Origin: an uncultured Syntrophaceae bacterium
GTDB taxonomy: Bacteria; Desulfobacterota; Syntrophia; Syntrophales; UBA5619
Reading direction: 5' to 3'
Assembly: GCA_964433455.1 (NCBI GenBank)
Contig: CAYSSF010000002.1
Span: forward strand, 7,950 to 71,393
Length of the DNA stretch: 63,444 nucleotides
The notes beneath the pieces were generated by a model that made no database searches, was not told the origin of the DNA, and was given only the letters and a program-made list of their open reading frames with translations. A program made the position numbers and the translations under genes. Every line of letters starts with the position of its first letter. Position 1 is the stretch's first letter. Shown here piece by piece: positions 14,380 through 51,479 of this stretch.

Positions 14380-16818
14380 TCACGCGCGGAGGACGCGCTG
14401 GTTTCTACCGCCAGCGGCCTGCAAGGGCGGGCGCTCGGCCTCGCGCCGATCGAAGGCGACTGTGATGATCAGGAGGGCGATCAGCTTTTGCAGGAGTTCG
14501 GGCGAGGCATGTTCGTCCTGCAGAACCTGCCTGAACCATTCGGAGATCGGCCGGTTCCCGCCGATCGAACGGAGTAGGTTGCGAACCCCCTGCCGTTCGC
14601 TGCACGGGGTCGAGGCGATGCGTCTTAGATCCTCCTCCAGAAATCTGACTCCTTCCAGGGCATGGCTGATCCTCAGGTCGGTGCGGTAGTAGTTCTCGGC
14701 GGTCCGGTTGAAGTCGCCGGCCTGCATCTCCATCGGGGAACGGGCCTTGGCCTTTTCCAGGATGGCCCGGGTCAGTTTTCCCCCTGCGGAACAGCGCTCC
14801 GGCTCCTCGATTCTTTTTTCGAGATCCTCGATCGTTGCGGACATCCGGAGGAGTTCGATCAGCTCCGCCCCATCCTCCTTGATGGTGCGAACGAGGGCCC
14901 GGCAATACTCCCGGTGGTGGACCCGCAGATACCCGGGGTAGCGCCGGCTGGACCTCACCCGCTCCGTTTTTTCCACGATCCGCCGCAGGAACCGGTTCCC
15001 AGAATCCTTGCGGATGAAGAAGGTGGGGATGCCCACGGCCTGCCCGAAGATGATCTGCCGCCGCTCGCTCTCGACAAAGGGATCGTCGGGGATATCGGCG
15101 TGGGCGACGCTCTCTTCGGCAATATATTTGAAGGCCAGGGCCGTGAGGAGGTTTTGCAGATCCACGGCCCTGGCCATATCCCCTTCCAGGCTGAAGAAGA
15201 GGCTGTAGGTGCGGCCCTCGAAACCGGAAAATCCCATGGCCGCGAATTCACGCAGCTTGTTGAACAGATAGAGAGACATCCTTTTGTCGAAGACGCCCAA
15301 TTCGGTGAGATCCCGTTTCAACCGGTCATGGTTTTGAGGCGTTCCATCCAGGGCCGGGCTCTTCTCCGTGCTCCTCAGGGCCACCAGGTAATCGATCAGC
15401 CGAAAATCGGGGATAAAATCGCCGCGGAGCCGAAAAAGGGCGCTGATCGCCCGGTCGAGCCAGGGAGGACCGAAGGGGGTCACGGTCTTTCCGAAGAGAT
15501 TGATGTCGGCCTTTTTCTGCCAGCGCCTCCAGAGCATGCGCAAGTGGGTGAAATCGAGTTCGTGGGGCAGAAATCCGAGAATGCTTTCGGGGTGGAATTC
15601 CGAAAAATCGAGCCGGTAGGGAGTGGCGCTGTAAGTGCCGACCAAAAGGGGCAGGAAATGCTCATGGATCTTGATGACCAGATCTCCCAGATATTTCTCG
15701 TGCCGGCTGTCGAATCCGGAGGCCGGATCCTTCAGTAGATCGGTGAGTTTGCGGCTGCCGAGGCTGACGTGGGTCCCGTTGTTGGCCAGGCTGATGTTGG
15801 AGGTGTTCGGCAGCACCACGAGATTCCGGTTGATGATGCCCGCCTCGCGGAGCTTCCCCAGCGCATTGAGCTGGCTGCGGCTCAGGACCCGGTGGCAGAG
15901 ATGCATGTATTCCTGCTTCACCTCCCCGCGGTTCCAACCCGAGAGACAGGGATTCATGAAAAGTTCCCGGTAAAAGGCATCGGAGATGCAGGCGTTCAGC
16001 TTTTTCTGCCGGATCGGCGGATGGGGCGAGTAGAAGACCAACGCCCTCTGGCCGCTCTCGGCAAGGCCGAAACGGCTGTTGGCGTAGAGGGTCAGCAACT
16101 GCGTCAGCAGAAACCGTTTTGCCGATTCCCTGGCCACCTCCCGTCCCATTTGGGTCCCGGGAGAGAGGGATGAGACATGGAAGGAGCAGACCTCCGGCGA
16201 GGTGTTGTCGCTGAGAAAGTGGTTCATCAGCGTCTGGCCCGTCCCGGCGATGAGCGGCGGCTCTCCGTCGATCGCCTCGGCCAGAGCGATCTTAAGGAGA
16301 TAGCTGATCGGAATGCGGATGTACTCTCTCCCCTCCTGAAGGAAGATGAAATTGGCAAGGTCGGTCCGTTCCCCCCGGGCCGGGTCGCCCTTGTCGGCCA
16401 GGAGATCCTTCTCGAAGACCCGTCGGGCGAAGGGGCCGAGCAGTTCCCTTGGGAAGCGGACCCAACTGTTTTCCCATACCCCGTCGGCATTCTCCTGGAG
16501 GTACCGTTCGAGATCGGTCATGGCCCGGTCCGGCAATTCGCCCGCCGCCCTTCGCCTGACAATATTGGCAAAGTAATGGGATTGGACGATGGTGATCGGC
16601 AGGTCAACCTCTTCCTTTTTCCCGATCACAACGGCCTGCAACTCCGTTTCGCTCCCGGCGGTGGTGTCATGCAGGGAAAAGGGAAGGTCCGCCACGTCGA
16701 CCCCGAACAATTTATAAACATTCAATTTTTCCATTCCTTCCCGGGTGGAGAGAACCTCCTCTTCCGGAAGGCGGCTCGGCGCCATGGCCAAACAGACGCT
16801 GCTTTCATTTCTGCTCAT
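14380..16818 (-). CDS. large (812 aa) conserved-looking protein of unrecognised family
   Basis: Uninterrupted ORF with coding-like composition. No signal peptide or TM segment is visible by eye, and I recognise no motif. ATG 16818 has a GGGGAAAGG RBS and aligns with the start of the duplicated fragment; the track start at 16848 is TTG. Confidence 0.8.
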   Translation of the reverse strand: MSRNESSVCLAMAPSRLPEEEVLSTREGMEKLNVYKLFGVDVADLPFSLHDTTAGSETELQAVVIGKKEEVDLPITIVQSHYFANIVRRRAAGELPDRAMTDLERYLQENADGVWENSWVRFPRELLGPFARRVFEKDLLADKGDPARGERTDLANFIFLQEGREYIRIPISYLLKIALAEAIDGEPPLIAGTGQTLMNHFLSDNTSPEVCSFHVSSLSPGTQMGREVARESAKRFLLTQLLTLYANSRFGLAESGQRALVFYSPHPPIRQKKLNACISDAFYRELFMNPCLSGWNRGEVKQEYMHLCHRVLSRSQLNALGKLREAGIINRNLVVLPNTSNISLANNGTHVSLGSRKLTDLLKDPASGFDSRHEKYLGDLVIKIHEHFLPLLVGTYSATPYRLDFSEFHPESILGFLPHELDFTHLRMLWRRWQKKADINLFGKTVTPFGPPWLDRAISALFRLRGDFIPDFRLIDYLVALRSTEKSPALDGTPQNHDRLKRDLTELGVFDKRMSLYLFNKLREFAAMGFSGFEGRTYSLFFSLEGDMARAVDLQNLLTALAFKYIAEESVAHADIPDDPFVESERRQIIFGQAVGIPTFFIRKDSGNRFLRRIVEKTERVRSSRRYPGYLRVHHREYCRALVRTIKEDGAELIELLRMSATIEDLEKRIEEPERCSAGGKLTRAILEKAKARSPMEMQAGDFNRTAENYYRTDLRISHALEGVRFLEEDLRRIASTPCSERQGVRNLLRSIGGNRPISEWFRQVLQDEHASPELLQKLIALLIITVAFDRREAERPPLQAAGGRNQRVLRA

Positions 16819-16905
16819 AGAGACCTTTCCCCGCAATGTTCCCCGCAACCATCATCCCAAACGTGGGAGATACTGAAAACTTTTAACGGGACTTAGCCGG
16901 TTCAT

Positions 16906-30168: not shown

Positions 30169-30207
30169 TTTAACCATAATTTCATCAAGCTGTCACACTC
30201 CCGTAAA
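30169..30207 (+). promoter_or_regulatory. Pho-box-like array (4 phased half-sites) upstream of the small HMA-like gene
   Basis: TTTAAC(30169), TTTCAT(30180), TGTCAC(30191), CGTAAA(30202) at 11-bp spacing, ending 72 nt before ATG 30279. Confidence 0.6.
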
Positions 30208-30278
30208 AGAGCAATGGTAGATTTGCCCGCAAATGGACGCAAGAAGCTTACGACCTTGGACGAGCATAAGGAGAAAAA

Positions 30279-30602
30279 ATGAATCATTACATCCATGACG
30301 TTCCCGGGAGAATCCGGGTAAAAAGTCCCGGGATAAAAGGCAACCAGCGCGCGGCCGACGAGGTGAAATATCTCGTTGCGGGTTTCAGCGGTGTCAATTC
30401 GGTGGAGTGCAACCTGATCACGGGAAGCATTCTAATCAACTATCAAAAGGATAAGCTCAACAAAAAGGTCATTGTCGATCTGCTCTCGGAAAAGGGGTTC
30501 TTCGATCAGTCGAAAGCGGTGACGATCGATGAATACTTCAACAGGGCCGCAAATTACATCGGCCGATCCGTCATCCCCGATCTCTTGATGGGGTTGATCT
30601 GA
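30279..30602 (+). CDS. small HMA-like (HMA2-type, no CxxC) protein
   Basis: 107 aa with an AAGGAG RBS. HDVPGRIRVKSPGIKG...VNSVECNLITGSILINY matches the N-domain of the ATPase (34700-37762) and the protein at 39297-39782. Confidence 0.7.
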   Translation: MNHYIHDVPGRIRVKSPGIKGNQRAADEVKYLVAGFSGVNSVECNLITGSILINYQKDKLNKKVIVDLLSEKGFFDQSKAVTIDEYFNRAANYIGRSVIPDLLMGLI

Positions 30603-30630
30603 CCCAAGGGTTGTTCCTAACATCACTATT

Positions 30631-31275
30631 TTACAGATGTATTACATTTTCGTTAAATGATGCCCCCCTGTTGCGTCTGACGGAGCTGATTTTGTTCTCT
30701 TCCCACAACCCGGCGTAAATCACCCTTCCGGATCGATCGGTCTGCGTTCCATATCCGTCGAACATCCCATGCGCGAAATCGCCATGATAGGACGAACCAT
30801 CGGTGTCCGTAAAAACACCCCTCCCGTGAAACCTTCCCTCCACGAAATCGCCGCGATAGGATGATCCATCGAATCGTCTTAAAACACCCTTCCCGTGCAT
30901 CTTCATCTCCTTCACTTCCCCCTCATACTCGCTGCAATCCGTCACGATCCTTGCTGTCCTGCCAACGGGGTTGAAGCCGTCCCACGTTCCGGAAAGCGCA
31001 AAACCTTGATAATGGAGCGTCCCTTTCCCTTTAGGCACAAGCCCCATAATTTCTCCAAGATATTTCATCTCACCGCCGGGGGAAATCAACATCGCGTCAT
31101 TTTCGACGGGGTTGCCCTCTTTCCATGGGCAGCCCAGAATCAATCCTCCGGAAAAGGTCAGTACGCCTCTGCCATGGAAGCGCCCTTTTCGAAAACTCCC
31201 CTCATATCTTTTGAATTCGCTGCCTTCTGGAAATTCCAACACACCCTGCCCGGTGAGTTCCAAAAACTTGAGCAT
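30631..31275 (-). CDS. MORN-repeat protein
   Basis: Repeated Y.G.F..G..HG.G units (YEGSFRKGRFHGRGV, YEGEVKEMKMHGKGV, YRGDFVEGRFHGRGV, YHGDFAHGMFDGYG). 214 aa. Confidence 0.75.
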   Translation of the reverse strand: MLKFLELTGQGVLEFPEGSEFKRYEGSFRKGRFHGRGVLTFSGGLILGCPWKEGNPVENDAMLISPGGEMKYLGEIMGLVPKGKGTLHYQGFALSGTWDGFNPVGRTARIVTDCSEYEGEVKEMKMHGKGVLRRFDGSSYRGDFVEGRFHGRGVFTDTDGSSYHGDFAHGMFDGYGTQTDRSGRVIYAGLWEENKISSVRRNRGASFNENVIHL

Positions 31276-31405
31276 ATTGTCCCTCTATGTGATTGCTTGC
31301 TTCCGCGTGTCATTCAGGTTTTTATGCGCTGCTCGGTTACGGCACCGTCGCGACATCCTCACGGTCCCAATGTATTTCCCACCCCAACCCTGTCCGCCGC
31401 CGGTT

Positions 31406-33331
31406 TCACGCCGCCCCAATTTCTTCGATGATCTCCGACTCCATCGGCGGAGCTTCAATCGAGCGCCTTGCAAACGCGCACCTGAAGGAATGCCACGCCC
31501 GTCTAAACGGATTTGGTCTCTTCTCCGGCCGGTTGCCATCCCCCACCAAAGCCACAAGATCGGCAACAAACCCGTTCATCTGTTCCGCCTGGGCGCTCAT
31601 CTGTTCGGAAGCCGAAGCCGATTCTTCCGCACTTACTGCGTATTGCTGCACGATCCTGTCCATCTCAACGACTGAGGCGCTCACCTGGCCAACACCTCTG
31701 GCCTGTTCTTGCGAGGCCGCCGTGATCTCTTCAACAAGCGCAGCGCAGCTTTTCGCCGAGTGGGCCACCTCCGCAACGTCACCATTCGTTTTGCCGACAA
31801 TTTCGCATCCCTCTTTGACCTGGTCCGTCATGTGCGCTATGAGGTCAGCGGTGTTTTTTGCCGCTTCGGCTGTTCGCCTGGCCAGATTTCTCACCTCCTC
31901 GGCAACGACTGCGAAACCCATCCCCGCCTCGCCGGCCCTGGCCGCCTCCACGGCGGCATTCAGAGCGAGGATATTGGTCTGGAAGGCGACTTTGTCGATC
32001 GTATCGATGATTTTTCGCGTCTCCTCGCTTGTCTTTGCCAATTCGCCCATGGAGGAGGTCAACCGGTGCATGGACAGGGAGGCAACGGAGGTCAGCTTGG
32101 CCGTACTCTGCATCAGGCGATCGGCCTGGAAAGCGTTGTCCGCGTTATTTTTGGTCATCGTATTGATCTGCTCAAGACTCGCCGAGCTTTCTTCAAGGGC
32201 TGCCGCTTGTCGGGACGCCCCCTCCGCCACGGACGAACTGGAAGAGGTCACTTGAGAAGAGGCATGGGCCACTTGAACGGCGCCGTCCAAAAGGCCTTTG
32301 GCGACGTCTCTGATGGGCTTTACGGTTGCACGGGTGATATAGACGGCCAGAACGATGCCGAGGAGGGTCGCGAGGAGAATGCCCATGATCATTGTGGACA
32401 AAGAAACCTTGTCGGCCGTCCGGACGGAAATCTTGTATGTCTCATCTAGACCTGTGTCGTGCGCCCCCTGGGTGAGCCTCACGACCTCGTTCCCGGTCCG
32501 TTGTCCCTCTTTGTTGATCTTCTGGACATCTGACCAGATGGCGACGAGCTCCTGCAGGGAATCCTTGTACATTTGGGAAGCGTTTTTCAGGTTGCTCACC
32601 AGGCTAAGTTCCTCTTCGGAGCGCGACAGCTCCTTCAGGGCCTTAAGCTTCTGGTCAATCGTTTCAAAGTATTTTCCCGTTTCGTCGATGGCCGTCAGGT
32701 CCCGCTTGGTCCGCGCCGACGATGCCGCCAGCACAATCTTGTTCCCCAAGTCGACCAGCTCGTTCATGAAGGCAACCTTGTTCAGTCTTTCCAAAAGCTT
32801 GTCGCGACTTGTCCCCGCGCGCATTTCGGTTTTCAACGTATCGAATTGACGGGAGAGAAAGCGGTTTGCGTTGCCCATGAAGAACTTGTTGGTTTCCTGC
32901 ATGTCGTCATAGTTTCTCATCAAGTCATAGTCTTTCACGGCAGCCGAATTGAACTGCTGTTCAAAAAGATCGATCTTGCTGCGGGCCCCTTTTACGGTCT
33001 CTTGAAACCTTGCCAGATTTGGGGTCCCGGAAGCCATTTTTTCGGCATGGTCAAGATTTTTCCTGGCTTCAGCCAACGCCGCCTTCCCCTCACTGAGAAC
33101 ATTGCTGTCCTGGGTGTATGAATAGATGGTGGCGCCCAGTGCGGCCTGAAGAAAGTTGCGCTCCAAATCGCTCGCAAGTTTCACCTGCGGAAGATATTCC
33201 TCTGCCAGTCTTTGCGTGGTCGCCTCGATCGTCAACGTGTTCCACAATGCGATGCTGCCGAAAACAATGTTCAAGAAGATAACGATTCCGAAACCGACGC
33301 CGATCTTCACCCCCAATTTCATGGATGTCAT
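31406..33331 (-). CDS. methyl-accepting chemotaxis protein
   Basis: N-terminal TM, periplasmic-type helical sensor, second TM, HAMP, and the conserved signalling hairpin ([37 protein letters not shown]). ATG 33331 (MTSMKL) is preferred over the track start at 33364. Confidence 0.88.
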
Positions 33332-33512
33332 TTTTTGGTCCCCTATCGCGGCCGGTGGGCGCATGGTCTATTTGCCCGAACTGTTCCGAACAGCGTGAAA
33401 GATGTCACGCTATTGTTGCGTGCGCCTTACGGTGATGTGAAATGAATGTTAATTTTTTGCCACTTACAGGTCTTGGCGGGGTTGAGATTAGAGCTATCCT
33501 TCTTGACTTGCG

Positions 33513-34703
33513 CTACGATCCCAGCAGCGCAGCTTTGTCCGTCCGTTCCCAGGGAAGATCAAGATCTGTTCTGCCGACCTGTCCGTACACGGCAAGCCGC
33601 CGATAGAAACCGTCCCGCGCAATCGAAGGAAGGTGTCGGAGATTGAACTGTTTCACAATCGCGGCCAGCCTAAAATCGAACAGCCGTTCAACCCGGTCAG
33701 ACAGTTCGTCATCGGCAATTTTTCGCGTGCCGAAAGTTTTGATCTGGACGCTCACGGGACGCGCCAAGCCGATGGAATAGCTCAACTGCACTTCACACTC
33801 GTCTGCCAGTCCGGCTGCTACGACATTCTTCGCCGCATAGCGGGCCGCGTAGGCGCCGACGCGGTCGATGCGCAACGGATCCTTGCCGCTCAGGGCGGCC
33901 TCGCTTTGCCGCGCATATCCGCCGTAAGTGTCCACACTGTTCTTTCTGCCGGTAAGCCCCGAATGCTGTGCAGGGCCACCGCCGATGAAAGGTCCGTCCG
34001 GATTGATGAAGATCTGCGTCTGGTCATCCGGCTTGATGGGTTCGTCCCGGAACACGGGATCGATGACCGAAGAGCGAATCTCCTCCGCCATTTTTCGCGG
34101 ATCGGGCTCGCCCGCCTTCGTCTGGCTAGCGATCACCGTAAGGCTGTGAATCCGGTAGGGCGAACGCTCCCGGTACCCGATCCCGACCTGTATCTTTCCG
34201 TCGGGATCCAGGTAGGGGAGCACCCCCTGCACCCTGACATCCCGGAGCCTCCGGGCGAGTTTGTGGGAGAGCCAGATAGGCAGGGGCATCAGAACAGGCG
34301 TCTGGTTGCAGGCATAGCCGAAGAGCGTTACCTGGTTCTTGACCGGTATCCGTTCAATCTCCTGATCCGACAGGGTTCGTTCATCGAAGCGACGGTAGCC
34401 ATCCGGCTCGATCTCCTTGAGACTTGTCACGATGCTGCAGTTCTTGGCGTTGAAGGTCCGGCGATTGTAACCCACCTGGTCGATCACGCTTCTGGCGATA
34501 TTCGCCACGTCCGCCGATGCCTCGGAATCGAACCGCGCCGCGACAAAGACGATGGATGTGGCTACCGCGCACTCGGCAACAATGCGCGACCACGGATCCT
34601 GCTGCAGGAAATGGTCGACAATGCTGTCGCTGATGAGGTCGCACAGCTTGTCGGGATGGCCTTCGGTGAGCGACTCGGATGTAAACAGAACGACCTTTTT
34701 CAT
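33513..34703 (-). CDS. divergent S-adenosylmethionine synthetase (MetK-like)
   Basis: SESLTEGHPDKLCD, GLTGRK, VDTYGG, SGKDP and AAYAARY motifs are present. The canonical GAGDQG loop is replaced (PVKNQVTLFGYA). The ATG overlaps the upstream ATPase stop (ATGA at 34700-34703). Confidence 0.8.
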   Translation of the reverse strand: MKKVVLFTSESLTEGHPDKLCDLISDSIVDHFLQQDPWSRIVAECAVATSIVFVAARFDSEASADVANIARSVIDQVGYNRRTFNAKNCSIVTSLKEIEPDGYRRFDERTLSDQEIERIPVKNQVTLFGYACNQTPVLMPLPIWLSHKLARRLRDVRVQGVLPYLDPDGKIQVGIGYRERSPYRIHSLTVIASQTKAGEPDPRKMAEEIRSSVIDPVFRDEPIKPDDQTQIFINPDGPFIGGGPAQHSGLTGRKNSVDTYGGYARQSEAALSGKDPLRIDRVGAYAARYAAKNVVAAGLADECEVQLSYSIGLARPVSVQIKTFGTRKIADDELSDRVERLFDFRLAAIVKQFNLRHLPSIARDGFYRRLAVYGQVGRTDLDLPWERTDKAALLGS

Positions 34704-37700
34704 TGCAACTCTCCTTTCCCATTTCCCTTGGCGAGTTCATTCACGATCACCGGCAGTACCGATGTTCCGGCAATGACCGCCCCGTCTGCGATGTTTATCG
34801 CCGTGTTGCCCAGCAGATTTCTCAATCCCGGCATCGCGACGGCCAATCCCTGGACTGCAAAAGATCCGGCGAGAGCCCCGGTGAGATGCCGATTCGGAGG
34901 CAACGGATTCCCGCCGAAGAGAGTCCGTTCCGTCGAACGGCAGCTCAAGGCGTGCAGGAGCTGCCCGGAAGAGAGGCTCAAGAACGCCAGCGTGCCGGCC
35001 TGCGCGCCCAAGCCGTACCGGACAACGCCGTATCCGTATGCGGCGAGCGCCCCCGAGGACAGCATGGCGGACTGAAGCATGATTTTCTTCAAATCGGCGG
35101 TGGTCAAGATCTCCTCGTCCTGTTGCCTCGGCGGTCTGGTCAGCACGTCCGGCTCCGGCGGTTCGAGGGCGAGCGCCAATCCCGGGAAGATGTCCGAGAT
35201 GAGATTGATCCAGAGAAGCTGCATGGTGTTCAGGGGCTGGCCGAGGCCGGCCCCGATCGCCACGAACATCACCATGATCTCGCTCATATTGGTGGAGAGC
35301 AGGTAGTGGATCGCTTTGCGGATGTTGTTGTAGATGGTCCTCCCCTGGCTGATCGCCACGATCATGGTCTGGAGGTTGTCGTCCTCCAGCACCACGTCGG
35401 CCACCTCGCGTGCCAGGTCCGTTCCGGTGTGGCCCATGGCAATGCCCACGTCGGCGGCCTTCAAAGCGGGTCCGTCGTTGATCCCGTCGCCGGTCATGGC
35501 CACCACCCGTCCCGCCTTTTGCAGAGACTGCACGATCTGCAGTTTGTGGGCGGGGCTGACCCGTGAAAAAATGGGGACGCGTTCGCTAAGGGAGCGCAGA
35601 ATATCGGGATCCATGTCGGCCAGATGGGTCGAGTCGAGAATTTCCATCTCCTCTCCGCGGCCGAGATCCAGTTCCTTTCCGATGGCGTACGCGGTCGGCG
35701 TCTGATCCCCGGTGATCATAACCGTATCGATGCCGGCTGTGTGAAATTGGGCAATCAGTTCCTTCACACCTTCCCTGATCGGATCGGCCATCCCGGTCAT
35801 TCCGAGCCAGATGTAGTCTTGTCCATTTGGATGGTCGCCGCATGGGCGTTCTCCGGATGCATCCACCGCCGCATAGGCAAAACCCAGAATTCGAAGGGCG
35901 CGGCCCGCCATCCGCTCGTTGGCGATCTCGATGACCCGCCGATCCTCATCGGTGAGGCGGCACTGTCTTCCCTGCACGATCTGAAAGGTGCATCGGGAGA
36001 GGATTTCGCGGGGACTTCCCTTGGCGGCATAAATGATCCTTCCCCGGTTGTCCTCGGCGCTGTGCAGCGTCGTCATGATGTTTTGGCCTTCGGACCGGTA
36101 CAGAATGCGAAGACGGGGATTTCCAGCCCGTAACGGTCGCGGATCGATTCCGGCGCTCAGGGCCATATGGATCAGCGCGTTTTCGGTGGACGAGCCTGTG
36201 ACCTCATAACACCCATCCCGGCCAGTTACTTCACTTTCATTGCACAACACCGAAACGTGGATCAGCCGCAGCAATTCGTCGCATGCAAAGGGGCTGATAT
36301 AGCCGTTCCCTGAAACGAACTTCCCGTCATGAAGGCGCATGGATCGCATCCCGGAGTAAAGCTCCTGCACGGACATGGTGTTCAGCGTGATGGTGCCTGT
36401 TTTGTCGAGGCAGATGGTCTGCAGGGAGCCAAGGGTTTCAACCGCTTCGAGATGGCGGATGAGCACATGCTGCTTTTTCATGTTCCGCAAACCCAGCGCA
36501 AGCGTTGTCGTCGCCACGGCCGGCAGCCCCTCGGGAACGGCGGCCACGGCAAGGGCGATGGAGGACTTGAGCATCTCCAGAAACCCGTATCCCCGCAGCA
36601 TACCGATCACAAAGACGCTCCCGCAGATCCCGATCGACATCAGGCCCAATTGCGTCCCCATGTGGTCGAGCTGCCTCTCCATGGGCGTATCCGGCGTTTT
36701 GATCTCGGAAGAAAGGCTCTGGATCTTTCCGATCTCCGTATACCGGCCGGTGCCCACGGCCACGGCCAGCCCCTGTCCTCCGATCACGAGCGTTCCCATG
36801 TAAACCATGTTACGCCGCTCGGCGAGGGGAATCTCACAACCGGCCGGCAGGACTGCTGCGGTCTTTTCAACGGGCATGCTCTCGCCGGTCAGGGCCGATT
36901 CATCGACGGTCAGGTGCTCCGTTTCGATGAGCCTTGCATCCGCCATAATGTAGCTGCCCGGCCGGAGAACGAGGATGTCGCCCGGCACCACATCCTCCGT
37001 GCTTCTCTCCTCAATGACGCCGTCGCGGATCACGGAGGCGTTCGGCCGCACCAGTCGTTTGAGCGAGTGGATGGTCTTTTCGGATCCGCTTTCGGTGAGG
37101 TAACCGATGGCGGAATTGACAACTACAACGGCCGCAATCACAACAGCATCAGCAAGGCCGCCGGTGAAAAGGGAAATGGCCGCCGCCACACCCAGAAGCG
37201 CCACGGGAAGAGATTTGAATTGACTCAATAGAATGGAGAGTCCCGAACGGGGAACCGACTCGGGAAGAATATTCGGGCCGTATTTTCGGATCTTGGCAAC
37301 GGCGGTCTGACCCGACAGCCCGATTGCCCTGTGGGAATCATGCCGCTCCAGGACATCGGCCGCCCCCATGAGATGCCACGGCTCCGCCGTCTGCTGTTCC
37401 GCCTTGGTAACCAGCTTCCGCAGGATCCGTCTGCTGGATGCTTTGTCGTCCCGCGCGGATTTTCCCCGCCGGATACCCGCCTGTGAACGATCGATCAGCA
37501 CTGTTTGCGGACCTAAGGAATTCCCCTGATTTGCATACTTTACAACGAACTTCAAGATAACGGCGGCAATCTCGCCAGGCGTCCTGTCCGGTCTGTGGAC
37601 AATCAAAACCGTGCCTGTCAGCGTGCTGGCCGAAATATGCAGGATTTCATTTCGTTTCGACAGCCCCTCCTCCAGATAGGCTTGGCAGGAATTTGAATGG

Positions 37701-37762
37701 TAGAGGCCGGCAACTCTGAAACGCGCTCTTCCTTTGACGGCGACATGAATCGGATGGACCAC
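34700..37762 (-). CDS. P2-type cation-transporting P-type ATPase with N-terminal HMA-like domain
   Basis: TGESMPVEK, PEGLP in TM4, DKTGTIT, KGSPREIL, TGDQ and GDGINDGPALKAADVGIAMG. The first ~75 aa (HVAVKGRARFRVAG...STLTGTVLIVH) resemble the small HMA-like proteins. GTG start with a GGAGA RBS. Confidence 0.88.
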   Translation of the reverse strand: MVHPIHVAVKGRARFRVAGLYHSNSCQAYLEEGLSKRNEILHISASTLTGTVLIVHRPDRTPGEIAAVILKFVVKYANQGNSLGPQTVLIDRSQAGIRRGKSARDDKASSRRILRKLVTKAEQQTAEPWHLMGAADVLERHDSHRAIGLSGQTAVAKIRKYGPNILPESVPRSGLSILLSQFKSLPVALLGVAAAISLFTGGLADAVVIAAVVVVNSAIGYLTESGSEKTIHSLKRLVRPNASVIRDGVIEERSTEDVVPGDILVLRPGSYIMADARLIETEHLTVDESALTGESMPVEKTAAVLPAGCEIPLAERRNMVYMGTLVIGGQGLAVAVGTGRYTEIGKIQSLSSEIKTPDTPMERQLDHMGTQLGLMSIGICGSVFVIGMLRGYGFLEMLKSSIALAVAAVPEGLPAVATTTLALGLRNMKKQHVLIRHLEAVETLGSLQTICLDKTGTITLNTMSVQELYSGMRSMRLHDGKFVSGNGYISPFACDELLRLIHVSVLCNESEVTGRDGCYEVTGSSTENALIHMALSAGIDPRPLRAGNPRLRILYRSEGQNIMTTLHSAEDNRGRIIYAAKGSPREILSRCTFQIVQGRQCRLTDEDRRVIEIANERMAGRALRILGFAYAAVDASGERPCGDHPNGQDYIWLGMTGMADPIREGVKELIAQFHTAGIDTVMITGDQTPTAYAIGKELDLGRGEEMEILDSTHLADMDPDILRSLSERVPIFSRVSPAHKLQIVQSLQKAGRVVAMTGDGINDGPALKAADVGIAMGHTGTDLAREVADVVLEDDNLQTMIVAISQGRTIYNNIRKAIHYLLSTNMSEIMVMFVAIGAGLGQPLNTMQLLWINLISDIFPGLALALEPPEPDVLTRPPRQQDEEILTTADLKKIMLQSAMLSSGALAAYGYGVVRYGLGAQAGTLAFLSLSSGQLLHALSCRSTERTLFGGNPLPPNRHLTGALAGSFAVQGLAVAMPGLRNLLGNTAINIADGAVIAGTSVLPVIVNELAKGNGKGELQ

Positions 37763-37827
37763 GACGGTGATCTCCTACAGAAGTTCGTTTCCGGTCACAG
37801 AAATCTACGAAAACCGATAGGTACCAT

Positions 37828-37866
37828 AGCGAAATACTATGACAACCCTATGACATTTCGATTACA
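37828..37866 (-). promoter_or_regulatory. Pho-box-like array upstream of the ATPase/MetK-like operon
   Basis: Minus strand reads TGTAAT(37866-37861), TGTCAT(37855-37850), TGTCAT(37844-37839), and a weak TTCGCT(37833-37828) at 11-bp spacing, 66-77 nt before GTG 37762. Confidence 0.6.
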
Positions 37867-37949
37867 GAAATATAAAATTTCCCGAAAGATGGCTGAAGGC
37901 GGCATGGGGTATCGCGAAAAGATAGTGACGGCAACGGCCGCATACGACA

Positions 37950-37977
37950 TTTAACGGAATTGTCATCCATCTGTCAC
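37950..37977 (+). promoter_or_regulatory. Pho-box-like array upstream of the small ORF/CorA-like operon
   Basis: TTTAAC(37950), TGTCAT(37961), TGTCAC(37972) at 11-bp spacing, ending 78 nt before ATG 38055. Confidence 0.6.
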
Positions 37978-38054
37978 AATTTCGTGGGATCATATGTCGT
38001 TTCTTTGGAAAACTTCAGCAGCAATGCAGCGAAGCTCTAAAGAGGAGCGAATCG

Positions 38055-38354
38055 ATGAACCGACCTCAATCCGAATCTGACGACAAAGCGGAACAAGTGA
38101 AGCATCGTCAATCCATAGAAGATTTGTCCATGTTACTGGAGATGCCCCGGGATTGCGTTGTCGCCGCCTATGAGCAGGAGCTGGACGCGATGGGACGGAT
38201 GGCGCGGGTTAGAGATTATCTTCCCATCCTGGTGAGCCGGCGGGTGAAGAACTTGCTCCAATCTCGCCGGGCTTTTGACGTTGCAACGGGCCGGTCAACG
38301 GCTCATCAAAATGAACACTTCACCGAAGGAAGAATGCATCATGGGATGGAATGA
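38055..38354 (+). CDS. small hypothetical protein (possibly DUF3562-like)
   Basis: 99 aa with a GAGGAG RBS. It overlaps the CorA-like start by 14 nt. The family guess is from memory only. Confidence 0.45.
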   Translation: MNRPQSESDDKAEQVKHRQSIEDLSMLLEMPRDCVVAAYEQELDAMGRMARVRDYLPILVSRRVKNLLQSRRAFDVATGRSTAHQNEHFTEGRMHHGME

Positions 38355-39279
38355 AATCAAAGGCAACAACATTCGTTGGATCAACATCGATCACCCGAAC
38401 AGCGAGACGGTCAATGCTTTGGCGGAAGTCCATCCATTCCACAAGCTTGCCCTCGATGATTGCCTTTCGAAAAATCAGCTCCCGAAAATAGATGATTATG
38501 GGGAATATCTATTCATCATTCTACACTTCCCCCGTTATCTCAAAGAGCTCAGATTCTCGATCCCGATGCAGGTCGCCCTCTTTCTGGGCCGCGATTTTCT
38601 TGTGACGGTCCATTCCGGCGACCTCAAGCCCATTAACCGCATCTTCGAAGCGTGCCGCGACAACGAGGCAGCCCGGAGCAATTACATGGGCAAGAGCTCC
38701 TATTACCTCGTTTACCAACTTATCCTGGCACTGGTGGAAAATCTCCTGAAGATGGCGGCCAAGGTTATGTCGAACATTGAGGTCCTGGAAGAGAAGGTCT
38801 TTGACGAATCTGTCGACGCTGTCCGCGACGTGACCGGGCTTCGCCACAACATCGCAAACCTGCGGCGAACGATCTTTCCGCTCAAGCGGGTGTTGCACGA
38901 ACTGGAGCGCGGAGTCGACCATTTTTCCAAAGATGAGACGATGGCTGTTTACTTCGGCGATCTTTCCGACTCGATCGACAAGGTTTGGGAGATCATCGAA
39001 TCCTGTAAAGAGATGAGCGAGATCTACAAGGACACGGACTACATCATCAGTGCGGATCGCACCAACAGGATCCTGACCCTTCTCACGATTGTCTTCACCT
39101 TTTCGATACCGGCATCGCTCATCGGGACGTTTTACGGCACGAACGTCAGAATCCCGGGAGGTCTCGAAGACGCTCCGACATTCCTCGGCCCGTACACGAC
39201 CTTCATTCTGATCGTCGCGGCCTCGGTTTTTTCCGTCGTCGTTATGCTTGCCCTCTTCCGCAAATTCCGCTGGCTGTGA
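38341..39279 (+). CDS. CorA-family divalent cation channel with GTN in place of GMN
   Basis: CorA-like length and architecture: a cytoplasmic domain followed by two C-terminal TMs. The loop motif reads FYGTNVRIPG (ggc acg aac at 39136-39144). ATG 38341 is preferred; the track ORF starts at 38275. Confidence 0.8.
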   Translation: MGWNEIKGNNIRWINIDHPNSETVNALAEVHPFHKLALDDCLSKNQLPKIDDYGEYLFIILHFPRYLKELRFSIPMQVALFLGRDFLVTVHSGDLKPINRIFEACRDNEAARSNYMGKSSYYLVYQLILALVENLLKMAAKVMSNIEVLEEKVFDESVDAVRDVTGLRHNIANLRRTIFPLKRVLHELERGVDHFSKDETMAVYFGDLSDSIDKVWEIIESCKEMSEIYKDTDYIISADRTNRILTLLTIVFTFSIPASLIGTFYGTNVRIPGGLEDAPTFLGPYTTFILIVAASVFSVVVMLALFRKFRWL

Positions 39280-39296
39280 TCGGAAGATGGCAAGTC

Positions 39297-39782
39297 CTAT
39301 TCTCCAACGGTGTTGCCGCTGGATGGGGATTTCGACATGATTCCGAAGGCGTACCAGAACGCCGTATACCAGGCAGGCGCTGCCAAATTCCCCTTGAACA
39401 CCTGGTAGACGCCGGCCCCGAGCAGGTAAATGCCTGCGACATCCAGCAAATCGACCTTCCCCCCTGTCAAGGATGAAAGATTCCGATTGACGGCCCGGAC
39501 TCCGGTGGTGATGTCCTGCCGCAAGGAGGTCCGCTTCGTGCCTGCGTTTTTCAGGCTGATGAGGCTTTGCTTGCGGATCGACTCGCAAAGGGAAGGCGTG
39601 TCCGAGTGATGGCACACCAGAACGCTGCCGGTCAGGGAATTGGTCTCCACGGATTCTATGCCCGGCAGCGTCGAAATGGTTTCCACCAATGCCCGGAAAA
39701 AAGCGTCGCTCCCCTTTTTGGCGGGGACTTTCATGCGGAACCGGCGGGACGTACTGTGGCTGAGATAGGCTTCAGGCAACAT
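39297..39782 (-). CDS. HMA-like (HMA2-type) protein with C-terminal membrane segment
   Basis: 161 aa. HSTSRRFRMKVPAKKG...IESVETNSLTGSVLVCH parallels 30279-30602 and the ATPase N-domain. The C-terminus VDLLDVAGIYLLGAGVYQVF...WYTAFWYAFGI is hydrophobic. Confidence 0.65.
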   Translation of the reverse strand: MLPEAYLSHSTSRRFRMKVPAKKGSDAFFRALVETISTLPGIESVETNSLTGSVLVCHHSDTPSLCESIRKQSLISLKNAGTKRTSLRQDITTGVRAVNRNLSSLTGGKVDLLDVAGIYLLGAGVYQVFKGNLAAPAWYTAFWYAFGIMSKSPSSGNTVGE

Positions 39783-39793
39783 GACACTCTCGC

Positions 39794-40234
39794 TCAGCTT
39801 TCCTTGGCCGCGGCCTCGGCTGCGATTTCAGACCTTGCTTCCTCAACGAGCTGCTCAACCGCTTCCCTGGCCTCCACAATGACGCTCTTCCCCTTATCAT
39901 AAACGGACCGGCCCTCGCCCATGATCGCTTTGGCGATGCGGTTCGGCTTCCCGGGGGCCGCTTTGGCTTTCTTCCCCTTTTTTGCCGCAACAGCAGCGGG
40001 CGCCGCCATTTCCGACTTTGCCTCCGCCATGCAATGCTCTATCGCCTCCTTCGCCTCCGACAAGGTTTCTTCACCCGTTTTGTAGAGCATCAAACCACCC
40101 TTGATAGCGGCCTTGGTCAACGGTTTGACGATGCTCGCCAGGATCGGAAGAATGAACGGCACCGCCACCGCGACCCCTACCCCGATGGCAATTCCACCAA
40201 CCGTCATCTTCATACCATTCTCTAAGAGAGCCAT
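39794..40234 (-). CDS. DUF5132-like protein, copy 2
   Basis: 146 aa with an AGGAGG RBS. N-terminal hydrophobic stretch GGIAIGVGVAVAVPFILPILASIVKPLTKAAIKGG followed by a charged Ala/Glu/Lys-rich helical tail. The family name is from memory. Confidence 0.65.
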   Translation of the reverse strand: MALLENGMKMTVGGIAIGVGVAVAVPFILPILASIVKPLTKAAIKGGLMLYKTGEETLSEAKEAIEHCMAEAKSEMAAPAAVAAKKGKKAKAAPGKPNRIAKAIMGEGRSVYDKGKSVIVEAREAVEQLVEEARSEIAAEAAAKES

Positions 40235-40275
40235 AAGATCACCTCCTGCCTTGCCTTTGCCCTTTTTCGGGATCC

Positions 40276-40629
40276 TCAGGACTTTTTACGCCGCGCCTGT
40301 TTTCTGGGTTCCTTTGCCGCAATCGTTGCTTCTTCAGCCCCGTGGGCCGCCGCAGCCATCACTTCCGCGCCTGCTCCCGCTGCAAGCTCCGAACATGCCT
40401 CGATCTCAGATTTTGCCTCAGCCAGAAGATCATCGATCGTTTCCTGGGCCTCTGCCAAGGTTTCTCTACCCTTGCCGTACAAAATCAGACCTTGCTTAAT
40501 GACGGCCTTGGTCAACGGTTTGGCAATACTCGCCAGGATTGGAACGATAATGGGCGCCACAACGGCAACTCCTACCCCGATGGCGAGGCCGCCAAGCGTC
40601 GTCTTTAGACCATTCTCCAACATAGCCAT
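40276..40629 (-). CDS. DUF5132-like protein, copy 1
   Basis: 117 aa counted from ATG 40629 (AGGAGG RBS). About 65 % identical over the first ~75 aa to 39794-40234 (MAMLENGLKTTLGGLAIGVGVAVVAPIIVPILASIAKPLTKAVIKQG). Confidence 0.65.
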   Translation of the reverse strand: MAMLENGLKTTLGGLAIGVGVAVVAPIIVPILASIAKPLTKAVIKQGLILYGKGRETLAEAQETIDDLLAEAKSEIEACSELAAGAGAEVMAAAAHGAEEATIAAKEPRKQARRKKS

Positions 40630-40709
40630 GAAATCACCTCCTTTCCGGTAAAACAACAGCACGGGAAGTAATGTAAAACCGGTGCCAATGGGTTGTCAAT
40701 ATTTTAATT

Positions 40710-40726
40710 GTTAAGTGTTTGTGACA
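40710..40726 (-). promoter_or_regulatory. single Pho-box-like pair upstream of the DUF5132-like operon
   Basis: Minus strand reads TGTCAC(40726-40721) and CTTAAC(40715-40710) at 11-bp spacing, 81 nt before ATG 40629. There are only two half-sites. Confidence 0.4.
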
Positions 40727-40821
40727 AAAAGATTCGACCGGGGCAACAACAGGCACCAGCCCGAAATTCGGGCAAACATCACTTCCCGTCCCGACTCCCC
40801 TTCATGGAACCAGCGGCCAGA

Positions 40822-41899: not shown

Positions 41900-43831
41900 C
41901 TAAGCATGCTGCCGCTGCTCGAACATGAATCCACTTTTCCCGGTTTCGGCCGTCATCCTTTTGACCTCTTTCTTCAAAGAGGCGGCGACTTCCGAAAACA
42001 GGGCCGGATGCGGCTCCGTCCAAATCTTGCTGCTGTCGACCACGGAGAGGCTCATGGTGACGAGCGGCGTTCTGACGGGGTTTCCCTGGCGATCCGTGGT
42101 CCCGAGGAGAAAACCTCTTGCGATATCCTCATTCTTGAACAGGGCGAGCTTTTCGGCATCGAAGCTTCGGCACAGATCTACCAGGGCCTCTTCCGGAATG
42201 ATGCCCCGGTTGACGATCACGAAGTCGTCGCCGCCGACGTTTCCCAATCTCGCCCCCTCCGGCAGCCGGGCGAGCCAGTCGCCCATCACCTTCGCCGCGA
42301 GGCACAGCATCTCATCCCCCATCAGAAAACCGTAGGTATCGTTATAGCCTTTGAACTGATCGAGATCGACATAGATAATCGAATAGGCGGGCCAGGTCAG
42401 GGCATCGTTGATCCAACGGCGGATCGCGTTGTTGCCCGGCAGGCCGGTCAGGGGATTAACCCCCATTGCGCAGCGGATCTCCAATTCAAGCGACTTGGTC
42501 ATCACCTGCTTCATGGTCACGGTCCCCATGAATTCCCCCCGGGAATCCACCACCAGGACGGGATCGTAGAGGTCTTCCGCCGGGCGGTCCATGGCCAGTT
42601 TCGCCATCGTCGTCACCGTCATCTTGTCTTCGACGATCAATGGATTCCGCTTGCAGACCACCTCAGCGGGTTTCTTCTGGAACAACTGATACCCGAAAGC
42701 GCCCCCGGTTTCCGCATAAAAATTCTGCCGCGTGATCATTCCGGCGATGCTCTCCCCGTCAAGAATGATCACGTGGTCCAGGTGGGTCTGTTTCTTGAAA
42801 ACCATATCCAGCTCCTTGCAGCAGAGGGTGCGGACGGCGATCGTCATCGGACGAATCACGAGGCCCGCCACCTTTTCATCGATATCGATCGCGGCCTGAT
42901 CATACTTTTCGATCAGCGCCCTGATCTTCTTTTTCATCTCCGCTGAAATGGGATAGGGCTCCTTCTCGGGCATGCCGAAGAGAAATCCCTGGACATACCG
43001 GATGCCGTAGCGAACCAGGACCTCCAACTCCTCCAACGATTCAACCCCTTCGGCGATCACCCTGGCATTGACGCTGGAGGCGAAGGCCGTAATGGCCTTG
43101 ACGAGCTTCTGCTTGTAGTCATGCCTGTGAACATCCCGGACGATCGCCATGTCCAGCTTCAGATAGTGGGGCGTCGAAGCGATCAACGTGACCAGGCCGG
43201 AATAGCCCGATCCGAAGTCGTCCATGGCGATCTTGAAACCCTGATTGGCGTAATGAGAAACCAGGGCCCCGAACGTTTTGAAGTCCTCGAAGCTCTTTCC
43301 CTCGGTGATCTCAATCACGATCTGTTTTTGATCGATCCCGTATTCATGGAGGCGCTTCTGGGTGAATCTTTCCAGAAAGCGGGGATCACTGAAGATGTCC
43401 GGGCTGACGTTGATGAAGTAGACGGCGTTTCGGAAGGGTTCGGAAAGCGACGCGATCTTCTTCAGGGCTGCGACACGGCAGGCCCTTTCCAAATCCCATG
43501 TCGCCCCCAGCCTTTTCGCCTCCGAGAACATCCGTCCCGGCGTTTCAAAGGGAGGGTTGCCCCGTGACAGGACTTCAAACCCCGTGATGGTGGCCGAGAA
43601 GAGATCGATAATGGGGTGAAAATGGGGAGTCACCTGAATCGACTCGATGAACCCGTTCACCAAGGTCTCCCGTGCGCGTGCGAGATCGCTGAAACCCTCT
43701 GCAGCGTGATCGGTTCGCGCCATGAGTTGGCTTTGCATGTCTGGTTTCTCCAATGTTTCCGATACATAACAGTGGATTGTGACGCCGTGATGACCGGTCA
43801 ATGAAGACTCCGTGAAATCAGGCGACGGCAA
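41900..43831 (-). CDS. EAL - CBS pair - GGDEF-like (GGDDF) signalling protein
   Basis: EAL-domain residues are present (EVLSR, N in FINVS, EITE, DDFGSGYS, KLD, EGVE, QG). The central region is CBS-like. The C-terminal cyclase-like domain has GGDDF instead of GG(D/E)EF. The true start is uncertain (43831 or ATG 43738). Confidence 0.8.
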   Translation of the reverse strand: MPSPDFTESSLTGHHGVTIHCYVSETLEKPDMQSQLMARTDHAAEGFSDLARARETLVNGFIESIQVTPHFHPIIDLFSATITGFEVLSRGNPPFETPGRMFSEAKRLGATWDLERACRVAALKKIASLSEPFRNAVYFINVSPDIFSDPRFLERFTQKRLHEYGIDQKQIVIEITEGKSFEDFKTFGALVSHYANQGFKIAMDDFGSGYSGLVTLIASTPHYLKLDMAIVRDVHRHDYKQKLVKAITAFASSVNARVIAEGVESLEELEVLVRYGIRYVQGFLFGMPEKEPYPISAEMKKKIRALIEKYDQAAIDIDEKVAGLVIRPMTIAVRTLCCKELDMVFKKQTHLDHVIILDGESIAGMITRQNFYAETGGAFGYQLFQKKPAEVVCKRNPLIVEDKMTVTTMAKLAMDRPAEDLYDPVLVVDSRGEFMGTVTMKQVMTKSLELEIRCAMGVNPLTGLPGNNAIRRWINDALTWPAYSIIYVDLDQFKGYNDTYGFLMGDEMLCLAAKVMGDWLARLPEGARLGNVGGDDFVIVNRGIIPEEALVDLCRSFDAEKLALFKNEDIARGFLLGTTDRQGNPVRTPLVTMSLSVVDSSKIWTEPHPALFSEVAASLKKEVKRMTAETGKSGFMFEQRQHA

Positions 43832-43864: not shown

Positions 43865-44299
43865 TCACAGGTTGATGGCCGCGCCCCACTCCCGGACCTT
43901 GGCCTTGATGTCGCCACGGATCTTGCGGATGGCGTCCATCTTCTCCTCCGGCGTACCGCTCAGAAGCGCCGGATCGGGGAAGCTCCAATGGAGACGTTTG
44001 GCATAACCCGGGAAGATGGGGCACCGTTGGGCGTTTGCCTCGTCACAAACGGTGATGACCCAGGAGAAGAGCTCGCCCTTCTTGAAAAGTTCGTAGACGC
44101 TCTTGGTCGGGTTCCTTGAGATATCGATCCCGACCTCCTCCATTGCCGCCACGGCAAGGGGGTTCAGCTCCCCCGGCTCAAGCCCGGCGCTTTGCGCTTC
44201 GAACCGCTCCCCGTAGAGAAAGTTCAGCCAGGCTTCCGCCATCTGGCTGCGGGCGCTGTTGTGAACACATACAAACAAAACCTTCGGTTTTTTCTTCAT
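43865..44299 (-). CDS. arsC: thioredoxin-coupled arsenate reductase (LMW-PTPase family)
   Basis: [25 protein letters not shown]-loop (CX5R), later Cys in [14 protein letters not shown], 144 aa. GGAGGAG RBS before ATG 44299. Confidence 0.85.
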
Positions 44300-44376
44300 T
44301 TTCAACTCCTCCACCGCCCCCCCCCGGCTGAAAACAAGGCGCGATATTCTTAACGTGGGGAGCCTACAGAACATTT

Positions 44377-44415
44377 GTTGCAAAACCATGACGGTCCCGT
44401 GAAGAATTCATGAAG
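44377..44415 (-). promoter_or_regulatory. Pho-box-like array (4 phased half-sites) upstream of arsC
   Basis: Minus strand reads CTTCAT(44415-44410), CTTCAC(44404-44399), CGTCAT(44393-44388), TGCAAC(44382-44377) at 11-bp spacing, 78 nt before ATG 44299. Confidence 0.6.
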
Positions 44416-51439: not shown

Positions 51440-51479
51440 GTTACAACCATGTGACAGCGCGATGAACTTTTCGTTACAC
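51440..51479 (-). promoter_or_regulatory. Pho-box array (4 phased heptamers) upstream of pstSCAB-phoU-phoRB
   Basis: Minus strand reads GTGTAAC(51479-51473), AGTTCAT(51468-51462), CTGTCAC(51457-51451), TTGTAAC(51446-51440) at exactly 11-bp spacing, 77 nt before ATG 51363. This is the expected location for PhoB boxes. Confidence 0.75.

Follow-up and report, generated by a model that had tools for sequence, protein, structure and literature searches.

A CoBaHMA-ATPase/MetK-like operon in a phosphate-starvation island of an uncultured Syntrophaceae bacterium: a possible divalent-cation pump complex

Why should a predicted cation pump, a protein that resembles S-adenosylmethionine (SAM) synthetase and several small proteins with hydrophobic segments be encoded together among phosphate-starvation (Pho) genes? 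The question is raised by a cluster at about 30-41 kb of a 63,444-nucleotide stretch of DNA (the window) from an uncultured Syntrophaceae bacterium (GenBank assembly GCA_964433455.1, contig CAYSSF010000002.1). We find that an operon present in several phyla recurs in the window in locally rearranged form, and that its conserved core consists of the DUF5132, CoBaHMA-hairpin, CoBaHMA-ATPase and MetK-like genes together with a small antisense CoBaHMA gene. The MetK-like protein is the obligate partner of the ATPase and, from its residue pattern, the subfamily to which it belongs almost certainly does something other than SAM synthesis, while the promoter sequences suggest that the operon of this genome is a member of the PhoB regulon. 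We put forward below a tentative mechanism in which these proteins would form a divalent-cation pump complex, and weigh it against other readings of the same genes.

The first-pass annotation of the cluster had allowed that its families might not keep company in other genomes, and the neighbourhood survey finds them together in at least five phyla. Loci were gathered by neighbourhood look-ups and by a scan of one genome per species, which gave 80 loci that were annotated with local hidden Markov models (HMMs) and unbiased clustering; the survey base comprised 80 species genomes and 120 metagenome contigs, and the counts given below refer to 85 sources with the window included or to the 84 related loci. 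The ATPase has abundant homologues at about 60 % identity, almost all with a precomputed match to PF19991, and look-ups that start from DUF5132 seeds arrive at the same operon. The carriers are Nitrospirota/Thermodesulfovibrionales, several orders of Desulfobacterota, Syntrophorhabdales, Binatia, Brocadiales, Nitrosospira and 22 cyanobacteria, including Chlorogloeopsis fritschii PCC 6912. In the canonical order, DUF5132 is followed by a CoBaHMA-hairpin protein (~160 aa), a repeat protein of ~230 aa, the CoBaHMA-ATPase, the MetK-like protein, a variable transporter and DUF3562, with a CoBaHMA gene of ~123 aa on the opposite strand. The repeat protein is acidic, contains about six amphipathic repeats of ~21 aa (V..V.KGAI.A.EEVG..; for example L026:1623-2318 (+)) and in 43-53 loci, about half of the total, shows translational coupling to the start of the ATPase gene; it matches no Pfam family and, among the surveyed loci, is missing from this window and from the cyanobacteria.

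Window genes were assigned from an open reading frame (ORF) listing and from Pfam and NCBIfam profile scans, and these profile searches match the family calls made at first pass (HMA2-type, DUF5132, P2-type ATPase and CorA-like). The copy in the window, from which the repeat protein has been lost, is rearranged locally. The genes for the DUF3562 small protein (38055-38354 (+), a profile match), which recurs in the extended operon in 19 loci, and for the CorA-like protein (38341-39279 (+)) have been inverted and lie so as to separate the pump from the accessory genes. The MetK-like and small CoBaHMA genes are separated by inserted genes for a MORN-repeat protein (30631-31275 (-)) and a methyl-accepting chemotaxis-type (MCP) protein (31406-33364 (-)). 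Both look like lineage-specific insertions; the MORN protein occurs in none of the 84 related loci, and the MCP-like gene was not searched for there. CorA, which had been counted as a component of the cluster, is not part of the core but interchangeable: the slot 3' of the MetK-like gene is occupied by MntP in 8-10 loci, by a CDF transporter in 5 loci and by CorA in 5/85 sources, this window among them. One could still argue that these are unrelated Pho-island genes that lie side by side by chance and form no functional module, given that in the window they fall into four transcription units broken up by the MCP and MORN genes. We find this hardly credible, since dozens of genomes from several phyla carry this set as a contiguous block read in one direction, and the chance-adjacency reading is contradicted by this synteny.

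The cluster also encodes the MetK-like paralogue (33513-34703 (-), 396 aa, a Pfam and NCBIfam match), which is translationally coupled to the ATPase gene by an ATGA in which it overlaps the ATPase stop codon by 4 nt. This overlap had been seen at first pass and stands, but the description of the protein as a divergent SAM synthetase does not hold in its plain sense, as its methionine/adenosine pocket is replaced. The protein has the three MetK domains, aligns end to end with solved MetKs and scores 357 bits against TIGR01034 (cut-off 309), and since the subfamily passes this NCBI equivalog model it would be annotated as SAM synthetase. Its residue pattern was read from 76 operon orthologues, in E. 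coli numbering. The triphosphate/metal residues H14, D16, K17, E42, D163, R244, K245, D249, K265 and R272 are present in 76/76, with D271 in 75/76 and K165 in 67/76. In the substrate pocket, by contrast with canonical MetK, E55R is found in 73/76, D238H in 76/76, G258S in 74/76 and K269R in 75/76; Q98 has become leucine or another hydrophobic residue, the GAGDQG stretch reads x(K/R)(N/Q)Q(V/A), T227 is D or E, R229 is P, and the adenine-contact stretch is altered too. Thus the methionine-site residues E55, Q98 and D238 are replaced by R, L and H, with loss of GAGDQG, in 73-76 of the 76 orthologues. A search of the full sequence library gave a clean split, in which the canonical representatives keep E-Q-D-D-G-K and some 30 clusters of the variant rank first.

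The same residues are known from the human enzyme, in which E70, Q113 and D258 of MAT2A, the equivalents of E. coli E55, Q98 and D238, hold the amino and carboxyl groups of methionine and SAM; the mutants D258G and K289N, found in patients, no longer make SAM but are still active as tripolyphosphatases (PMC6850014). These observations bear directly on the possibility that the protein is an ordinary SAM synthetase, one that supplies phosphate-starvation chemistry such as betaine or methylated lipids or the radical-SAM C-P lyase, with the pump merely sharing its operon. The TIGR01034 score above cut-off, the regulation of metK by PhoP in Saccharopolyspora reported in the literature and a PhnH gene near one locus speak for it. 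Nevertheless, it is very improbable: the methionine/SAM-contact residues are replaced throughout the orthologues while canonical MetKs retain them, substitutions of this kind abolish SAM synthesis in the human enzyme (PMC6850014), and the variant keeps company almost exclusively with this ATPase. We reject the plain SAM-supply reading on this residue and synteny evidence, and annotations should not list the protein as a SAM synthetase.

The tie to the ATPase was measured in both directions. Seen from the ATPase, the MetK-like gene lies downstream, always on the same strand, in 76/85 sources, with the 4-nt overlap in 26 of them. For the reciprocal test, a DNA pattern specific to the variant 'H-S-GLTGRK' stretch was scanned over the metagenome contigs, which yielded 123 MetK-like ORFs in the 120 contigs, 117 of them with the variant signature; where at least 400 nt of upstream DNA were present, the ATPase was found upstream on the same strand in 75 of 78 variants. 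As a separate observation, three Nitrospirota species encode, no more than 10 kb from the MetK-like gene, a SAM synthetase of the archaeal type (L031:20375-21577, L032:17813-19084 and L062:19457-20728), the L062 copy by PF01941 (E 4e-161) and those of L031 and L032 by clustering.

The partner of this protein is a P2-type cation ATPase of 1020 aa (34700-37762 (-)) with the motifs TGES, PEGLP, DKTGTIT and GDGINDGPAL and the domains E1-E2_ATPase, Cation_ATPase_N and Cation_ATPase_C, preceded by an N-terminal CoBaHMA domain (residues ~1-75) and a conserved basic linker. The N-terminus of the window protein scores 25 bits against HMA_2, under the gathering score of 30, and its H6, G11, R12 and R14 are invariant in the orthologues, most of which have a precomputed PF19991 hit. 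Among solved structures, SPCA1 and Listeria LMCA1 come closest (E ~1e-146 to 1e-148). When the subfamily was classified, as a check on whether the pump falls in a clade with an established role, it came out below the NCBIfam equivalog cut-offs and outside the characterised clades (PMR1-type 611 versus 798, SERCA-type 525 versus 703 and PMCA-type 391 versus 507 bits). Residues E411, N825, E828, N853, S856 and D857 are invariant among 16 family members, and Q934 occupies the position of E908; the corresponding residues of the SERCA ion site are E309, N768, E771, N796, T799, D800 and E908. The CorA-like 2-TM (two-transmembrane) channel that fills the variable slot for a second divalent-cation transporter in the window belongs to PF01544 (E 1.6e-52) and scores 137 against TIGR00383 (cut-off 200); it carries GTN where the operon CorA proteins of other loci carry GMN.

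Two further CoBaHMA proteins accompany the pump. A free-standing one of 107 aa (30279-30602 (+); PF19991, 47.9 bits, E 1.8e-12) is orthologous to the antisense gene of ~123 aa in the canonical operon, and one of 161 aa (39297-39782 (-); full-length HMA_2, 59.4 bits) joins a CoBaHMA domain to a C-terminal hydrophobic helical hairpin with a WYxxxWYAF motif. The three window modules have an invariant His, an R.R pair and a TG(S/T) turn, and comparison bears out the pattern H..R.R...TG(S/T)(I/V)L that had been proposed as common to them, with no CxxC metal site in any of the three sequences; among orthologues, H6/R12/R14 of the ATPase domain and H9/R14/R16 of the hairpin protein are invariant. An AlphaFold2 (AF2) model of the 161-aa protein, built from 69 sequences, predicts strands at residues 4-10, 14-18, 42-48, 53-58 and 76-78 and helices at 26-37 and 62-71 (predicted local distance difference test score, pLDDT, 87-94), that is, a strand beta0, a beta-alpha-beta-beta-alpha-beta core and then three helices, of which the last two are hydrophobic. 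Foldseek matches this model to HMA domains (probability 0.97-1.0) and to YbgJK/KipI-type proteins, and the modelled fold agrees with the published description of CoBaHMA. HMA_2 (PF19991) is the CoBaHMA domain first seen in calcyanin (Benzerara 2022, PMC8890360).

Upstream of the hairpin protein lie two DUF5132 proteins, a (39794-40234 (-), 146 aa) and b (40276-40662 (-), with a likely start at M12, position 40629, which gives 117 aa). They score 34.6 and 42.7 bits against PF17195 (gathering score 25) and are 54 % identical to each other, less than the ~65 % first estimated. Both have an N-terminal hydrophobic segment, conserved prolines and an acidic helix, and the AF2 model for DUF5132 is all-helical, of moderate quality (pLDDT 75.6) and without a structural neighbour in the PDB, as published for the Microcystis homologue. 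The net charge of the CoBaHMA domains is +2 to +5, and that of the conserved DUF5132 helix has a median of -3. In cyanobacteria the upstream gene encodes DUF5132 fused to the C-terminal 'WYxxxWYAF' hairpin of the CoBaHMA-hairpin protein, and this fusion provides a Rosetta-stone link between the two families. Matches of the DUF5132 HMM to CoBaHMA-hairpin proteins are due to these fusions and were excluded from the counts.

What controls the cluster? In classical PhoB-dependent promoters of E. coli, phased Pho boxes are followed by a -10 element, and there is no -35. Pairs of the form TGTCAY-N5-TGTCAY (at most one mismatch) occur 8 times in the window against 0.57 expected, a number reached by 0/100 shuffles; the single heptamer alone shows no enrichment in the window. 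The cluster itself contains four phased matches, at 30180-30196 (+), two overlapping at 37839-37866 (-), which make three units, and at 37961-37977 (+). The array upstream of the small CoBaHMA gene (30180..30223 (+)) reads TTTCAT/TGTCAC/CGTAAA in 11-bp phase, then TAGATT after 10 nt; that of the predicted ATPase/MetK-like operon promoter (37823..37866 (-)) reads TGTAAT/TGTCAT/TGTCAT, then TATGGT after 10 nt; and that of the predicted promoter of the DUF3562/CorA-like pair (37961..37993 (+)) reads TGTCAT/TGTCAC, then GATCAT after 10 nt. The pstS2 promoter serves as an internal positive control, with four units TGTAAC/GTTCAT/TGTCAC/TGTAAC at 51440-51478 (-) followed by TAGATT. In 4/4 of these promoters (pstS2 and three in the cluster) the -10-like hexamer begins exactly 10 nt past the last unit, and a -35 element is absent from all four. 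The fourth promoter region of the cluster, that of the DUF5132/CoBaHMA-hairpin operon (40670..40727 (-)), has a sigma-70-like TTGACA-18-TACATT with a weak TGTCAC-N5-CTTAAC (~40711-40727) just upstream. If a PhoB-type promoter is taken as at least two repeats in 11-bp phase that end 10 nt before a -10, three cluster promoters are of this type and the DUF5132 operon only partly so; the first-pass claim of a phased array on each of four units therefore stands for three, which share the pstS2 geometry, and gives way at the fourth, where the array is weak.

Beyond the window, the closest relative (74 % ATPase identity) has TGTAAA/TGACAC/TGTCAT at the equivalent promoter position. Boxes of the SphR type (YTTAAYYW repeats) gave only scattered single matches upstream of the cyanobacterial operons. 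Six Nostocales operons (L051, L060, L061, L071, L073 and L077) have a conserved motif CTCTGTAACTTTAGGCTGATG..TAG.AAT about 50-100 nt upstream, which differs from the SphR/Pho-box consensus. Rfam at gathering thresholds gave zero matches across the whole window, so that no known riboswitch lies upstream of the operons.

The gene neighbourhood points to phosphate as well. The window is a Pho island, as had been recognised at first pass: it contains ppk1, PIN-PhoH, two pst operons, a PhoR-like kinase and phnCDE, two phosphodiesterases, a PhoA-like/metallophosphatase protein and, between the kinase gene and pstB, a PhoU-sized ORF that is a candidate PhoU by its size. The ppk1 gene, which had been cited as lying in the same island as the cluster, is indeed in the window but ~27 kb away (470-2770). 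In 13 of 55 Nitrospirota/Desulfobacterota loci, a set with many truncated members, strict Pho markers (PstS/C/B, PhoU, PhoH) are found no further than 10 kb from the operon, and PhoR-like/PhoB-like pairs adjoin it in further loci. Other recurrent neighbours are PsiE, OlsF-like acyltransferases, PlcP-like metallophosphatases, PhnD/PhnH, PHO4, LMWPc/ArsC and EAL-GGDEF proteins; an 803-aa GT4 glycosyltransferase is found near the operon in 5 loci, and phosphatidylserine (PS)-decarboxylase-like and VTT/DedA genes also lie nearby. Several of these neighbours (OlsF-like, the 803-aa GT4, PlcP-like Metallophos, PS-decarboxylase-like and VTT/DedA) fit a role in lipid remodelling, in which CoBaHMA would sense anionic phospholipids and switch the pump when phosphorus-free lipids replace phospholipids under phosphorus starvation, and the binding of anionic lipids by CoBaHMA is a published hypothesis. 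We consider this role distinctly unlikely, however, for it leaves the obligate MetK-like partner and the DUF5132 proteins unexplained, lipid binding by CoBaHMA is itself only a hypothesis, and the neighbouring genes may simply mirror shared Pho control.

Based on these data we put forward a hypothetical mechanism in which the operon encodes a divalent-cation pump complex that is induced by starvation for inorganic phosphate (Pi) and tied to the turnover of phosphate and polyphosphate (polyP), a reading that we regard as quite possible, if short of probable. We propose that PhoB responds to Pi starvation by switching on the ATPase/MetK-like operon, the small CoBaHMA gene and the DUF3562/CorA-like pair, with a less certain effect on the DUF5132/CoBaHMA-hairpin operon. 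The P2-type pump, with its SERCA-like ion site, would then remove divalent cations of the Ca2+ type from the cytoplasm, and the second transporter (CorA-like here, MntP or CDF elsewhere) would take other divalent cations and so widen the range. Such pumping would offset the cations that are set free as phosphorus-rich polyanions (polyP, RNA and phospholipids) are dismantled. The basic CoBaHMA head of the pump may act as a regulatory or tethering domain for an anionic partner, for which the invariantly acidic amphipathic helix of DUF5132, anionic lipids and polyP are candidates, and the free-standing and hairpin-anchored CoBaHMA proteins could tune or localise this interaction. We further hypothesize that the MetK-like protein makes no SAM and most likely binds or hydrolyses tri- or polyphosphate beside the pump, or uses another substrate; a triphosphate-type ligand is suggested because the tripolyphosphate/metal site is kept and several of the substitutions in the pocket are basic (R55, K/R117 and H238, with K269R). 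The cation-handling ideas of the first-pass annotation, whether linked to polyP or to cations released in phosphorus starvation, remain plausible in the light of these sequences.

Several observations weigh against this pump mechanism. Across the other 84 loci there is no enrichment of the E. coli-type phased TGTCAY motif (35 matches in 1.55 Mb); we therefore claim conserved Pho boxes only as far as the closest relative, and beyond this lineage the case for Pho control comes from gene neighbourhood alone. PPK, PPX and CHAD do not recur beside the operon in the surveyed loci, which makes the link to polyP an indirect one; families of carbonic anhydrases and bicarbonate transporters do not recur there either, so that neither a polyP nor a carbonate model is backed by the neighbourhood. 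The ion specificity of the ATPase cannot be read from its sequence, given the change of E908 to Q and the missed Ca-ATPase equivalog cut-offs. The putative contact between DUF5132 and CoBaHMA is argued only from charge complementarity and co-occurrence. Finally, the accessory set, with its hairpin proteins and repeat protein, seems more elaborate than a simple efflux pump needs.

Another reading is that the system makes or maintains an intracellular cation store or inclusion, such as an amorphous Ca-carbonate or Ca/Mg-polyP body, where the pump loads a compartment and the hairpin and repeat proteins form or coat its boundary. Such a system would be akin to the genes that surround ccyA in cyanobacteria with intracellular amorphous calcium carbonate (iACC). 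In Microcystis PCC 7806, ccyA and a Ca2+/H+ exchanger gene are flanked by two DUF5132 genes, a CoBaHMA-DUF454 hairpin gene and a small CoBaHMA gene, and the DUF5132, CoBaHMA-DUF454 and cax genes are co-expressed with ccyA (bioRxiv 10.1101/2024.07.07.602159). The same accessory proteins thus stand beside ccyA; the ATPase operon is present in C. fritschii PCC 6912, a strain named in the literature as bearing ccyA; the ~21-aa amphipathic repeats of the pump-coupled ~230-aa protein are typical of coat proteins; and the accessory proteins bear hydrophobic hairpins rather than classical transmembrane bundles. We nevertheless judge a store unlikely. The cluster contains no calcyanin-like gene (the sizeable ORFs at 30-41 kb all belong to other families, and no dedicated GlyZip search was made elsewhere in the window), many of the taxa that carry the operon are not known to calcify, and the window does not have the repeat protein. 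Moreover, Pho control has no obvious place in the store model, pumps of this kind usually export across the cell membrane, and no compartment has so far been seen in carrier organisms.

A bolder version, which we also hold to be improbable, would make the operon a three-part machine found across phyla, in which an enzyme derived from MetK with a non-methionine substrate (probably an anionic one of the phosphate type), a CoBaHMA-gated P2-type pump to which this enzyme is obligately coupled in its work, and hairpin/coat proteins build or dismantle a store of divalent cations with (poly)phosphate or carbonate. If this were true, the machine would be a new organelle-type system, with a new enzymatic activity hidden under the annotation 'SAM synthetase'.

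Several further features of the window are recorded here in their own right. Directly upstream of pstS1, at 7768-8163 (-), a 131-aa ORF resembles the N-terminal part of the CorA-like protein (for example '...FIILHFPRYLKE.RFSIPMQV'); it seems to be a fragment or pseudogene of CorA and hence indicates a past rearrangement of the module. Upstream of a hybrid-kinase gene (~5530-5925 (+)) there is a partial copy of the N-terminus of an 822-aa protein encoded at 14380-16848 (-), for which no Pfam match was found. The upstream regions of the hybrid-kinase stretch and of the 822-aa gene have 'cgtcatca(a/t)ccggtcaca' in common, and there are phased TGTCAY sites at 5432 (-) and 17087 (+); the 822-aa protein may itself be Pho-regulated. 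The module is flanked in the window by genes for an EAL-GGDEF protein (41900-43831 (-)) and an LMWPc (ArsC-like) phosphatase (43865-44389 (-)), a pair that flanks it likewise in L085, a distant Pseudomonadota metagenome-assembled genome, and a Zn-ribbon protein recurs in 21 loci. These three proteins may be further companions of the Pho island.

How much of this is new? The first-pass annotation knew of no described function for the gene combination, and that remains true of its function, but not of its parts, since CoBaHMA is a known domain and DUF5132/CoBaHMA genes were known beside ccyA and cax. Our literature search found no account of the ATPase/MetK-like operon, of Pho-regulated Ca-ATPases, of an operon MetK paralogue or of a link to Pho. 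Within the searchable literature, then, the domain families are established and the novelty lies in the operon, the near-universal MetK-like partner and the Pho wiring. The MetK-like subfamily offers a concrete case of enzyme neofunctionalisation with a cation pump as the invariant partner. The CoBaHMA and DUF5132 families, so far tied to intracellular calcification in cyanobacteria, belong to a pump operon in anaerobic Nitrospirota/Desulfobacterota, which gives the calcification field genetically independent systems and a regulatory handle, phosphate. If a Ca-type P2 ATPase is indeed under Pho control, phosphorus starvation would be linked to divalent-cation homeostasis beyond the enterobacterial Mg2+/Pi paradigm.

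The operon can be compared with several known systems. In ferrosome (fez) operons, a P1B-6 ATPase and small membrane proteins form an iron-storage organelle. The likeness lies in a specialised P-type ATPase whose compact and widely transferred operon also encodes small hydrophobic partners; the metal is a different one, and so are the subfamily of the ATPase and the families of its partners. The window pump has overall sequence, PEGLP, DKTGT, GDGxND and most Ca-site residues in common with LMCA1/SPCA1/PMR1 and SERCA, and unlike LMCA1, SPCA1 and SERCA it has an extra N-terminal CoBaHMA domain and basic linker and stays under the equivalog cut-offs. It keeps the site-I residues N768 and E771 of SERCA, which are absent from SPCA1 and presumably from LMCA1 too, and has Q at E908. 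SERCA has small single-helix regulators, phospholamban and sarcolipin, and by analogy the small membrane-anchored proteins with an amphipathic helix that are encoded beside the window pump, although unrelated to these regulins, could be its regulators.

With bacterial MetK (TIGR01034) the MetK-like protein shares the three-domain fold and all triphosphate-, Mg2+- and K+-binding residues, and it differs in pocket substitutions, at the methionine and adenosine sites, that are fixed across the subfamily. The three CoBaHMA domains of the window show the hallmarks of their family: the conserved His of the additional strand beta0, basic residues in beta1 and the lack of CxxC, together with an HMA core of the ferredoxin-like type, which was modelled for the 161-aa protein. 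Known CoBaHMA architectures, in the 2024 work of Gaschignard, reportedly include fusions to membrane transport proteins; the operon, the MetK-like partner and the Pho link did not turn up for published CoBaHMA work in the literature search. A further parallel is the ccyA neighbourhood of Microcystis aeruginosa PCC 7806, where the same accessory set as in the window lies beside a Ca2+ transporter. There, the transporter is a CAX exchanger and calcyanin is present, whereas the window has a CoBaHMA-fused P2-type ATPase, an obligate MetK-like partner and Pho boxes; and while the ccyA hosts are cyanobacteria, the carriers of the operon include anaerobic Desulfobacterota or Nitrospirota.

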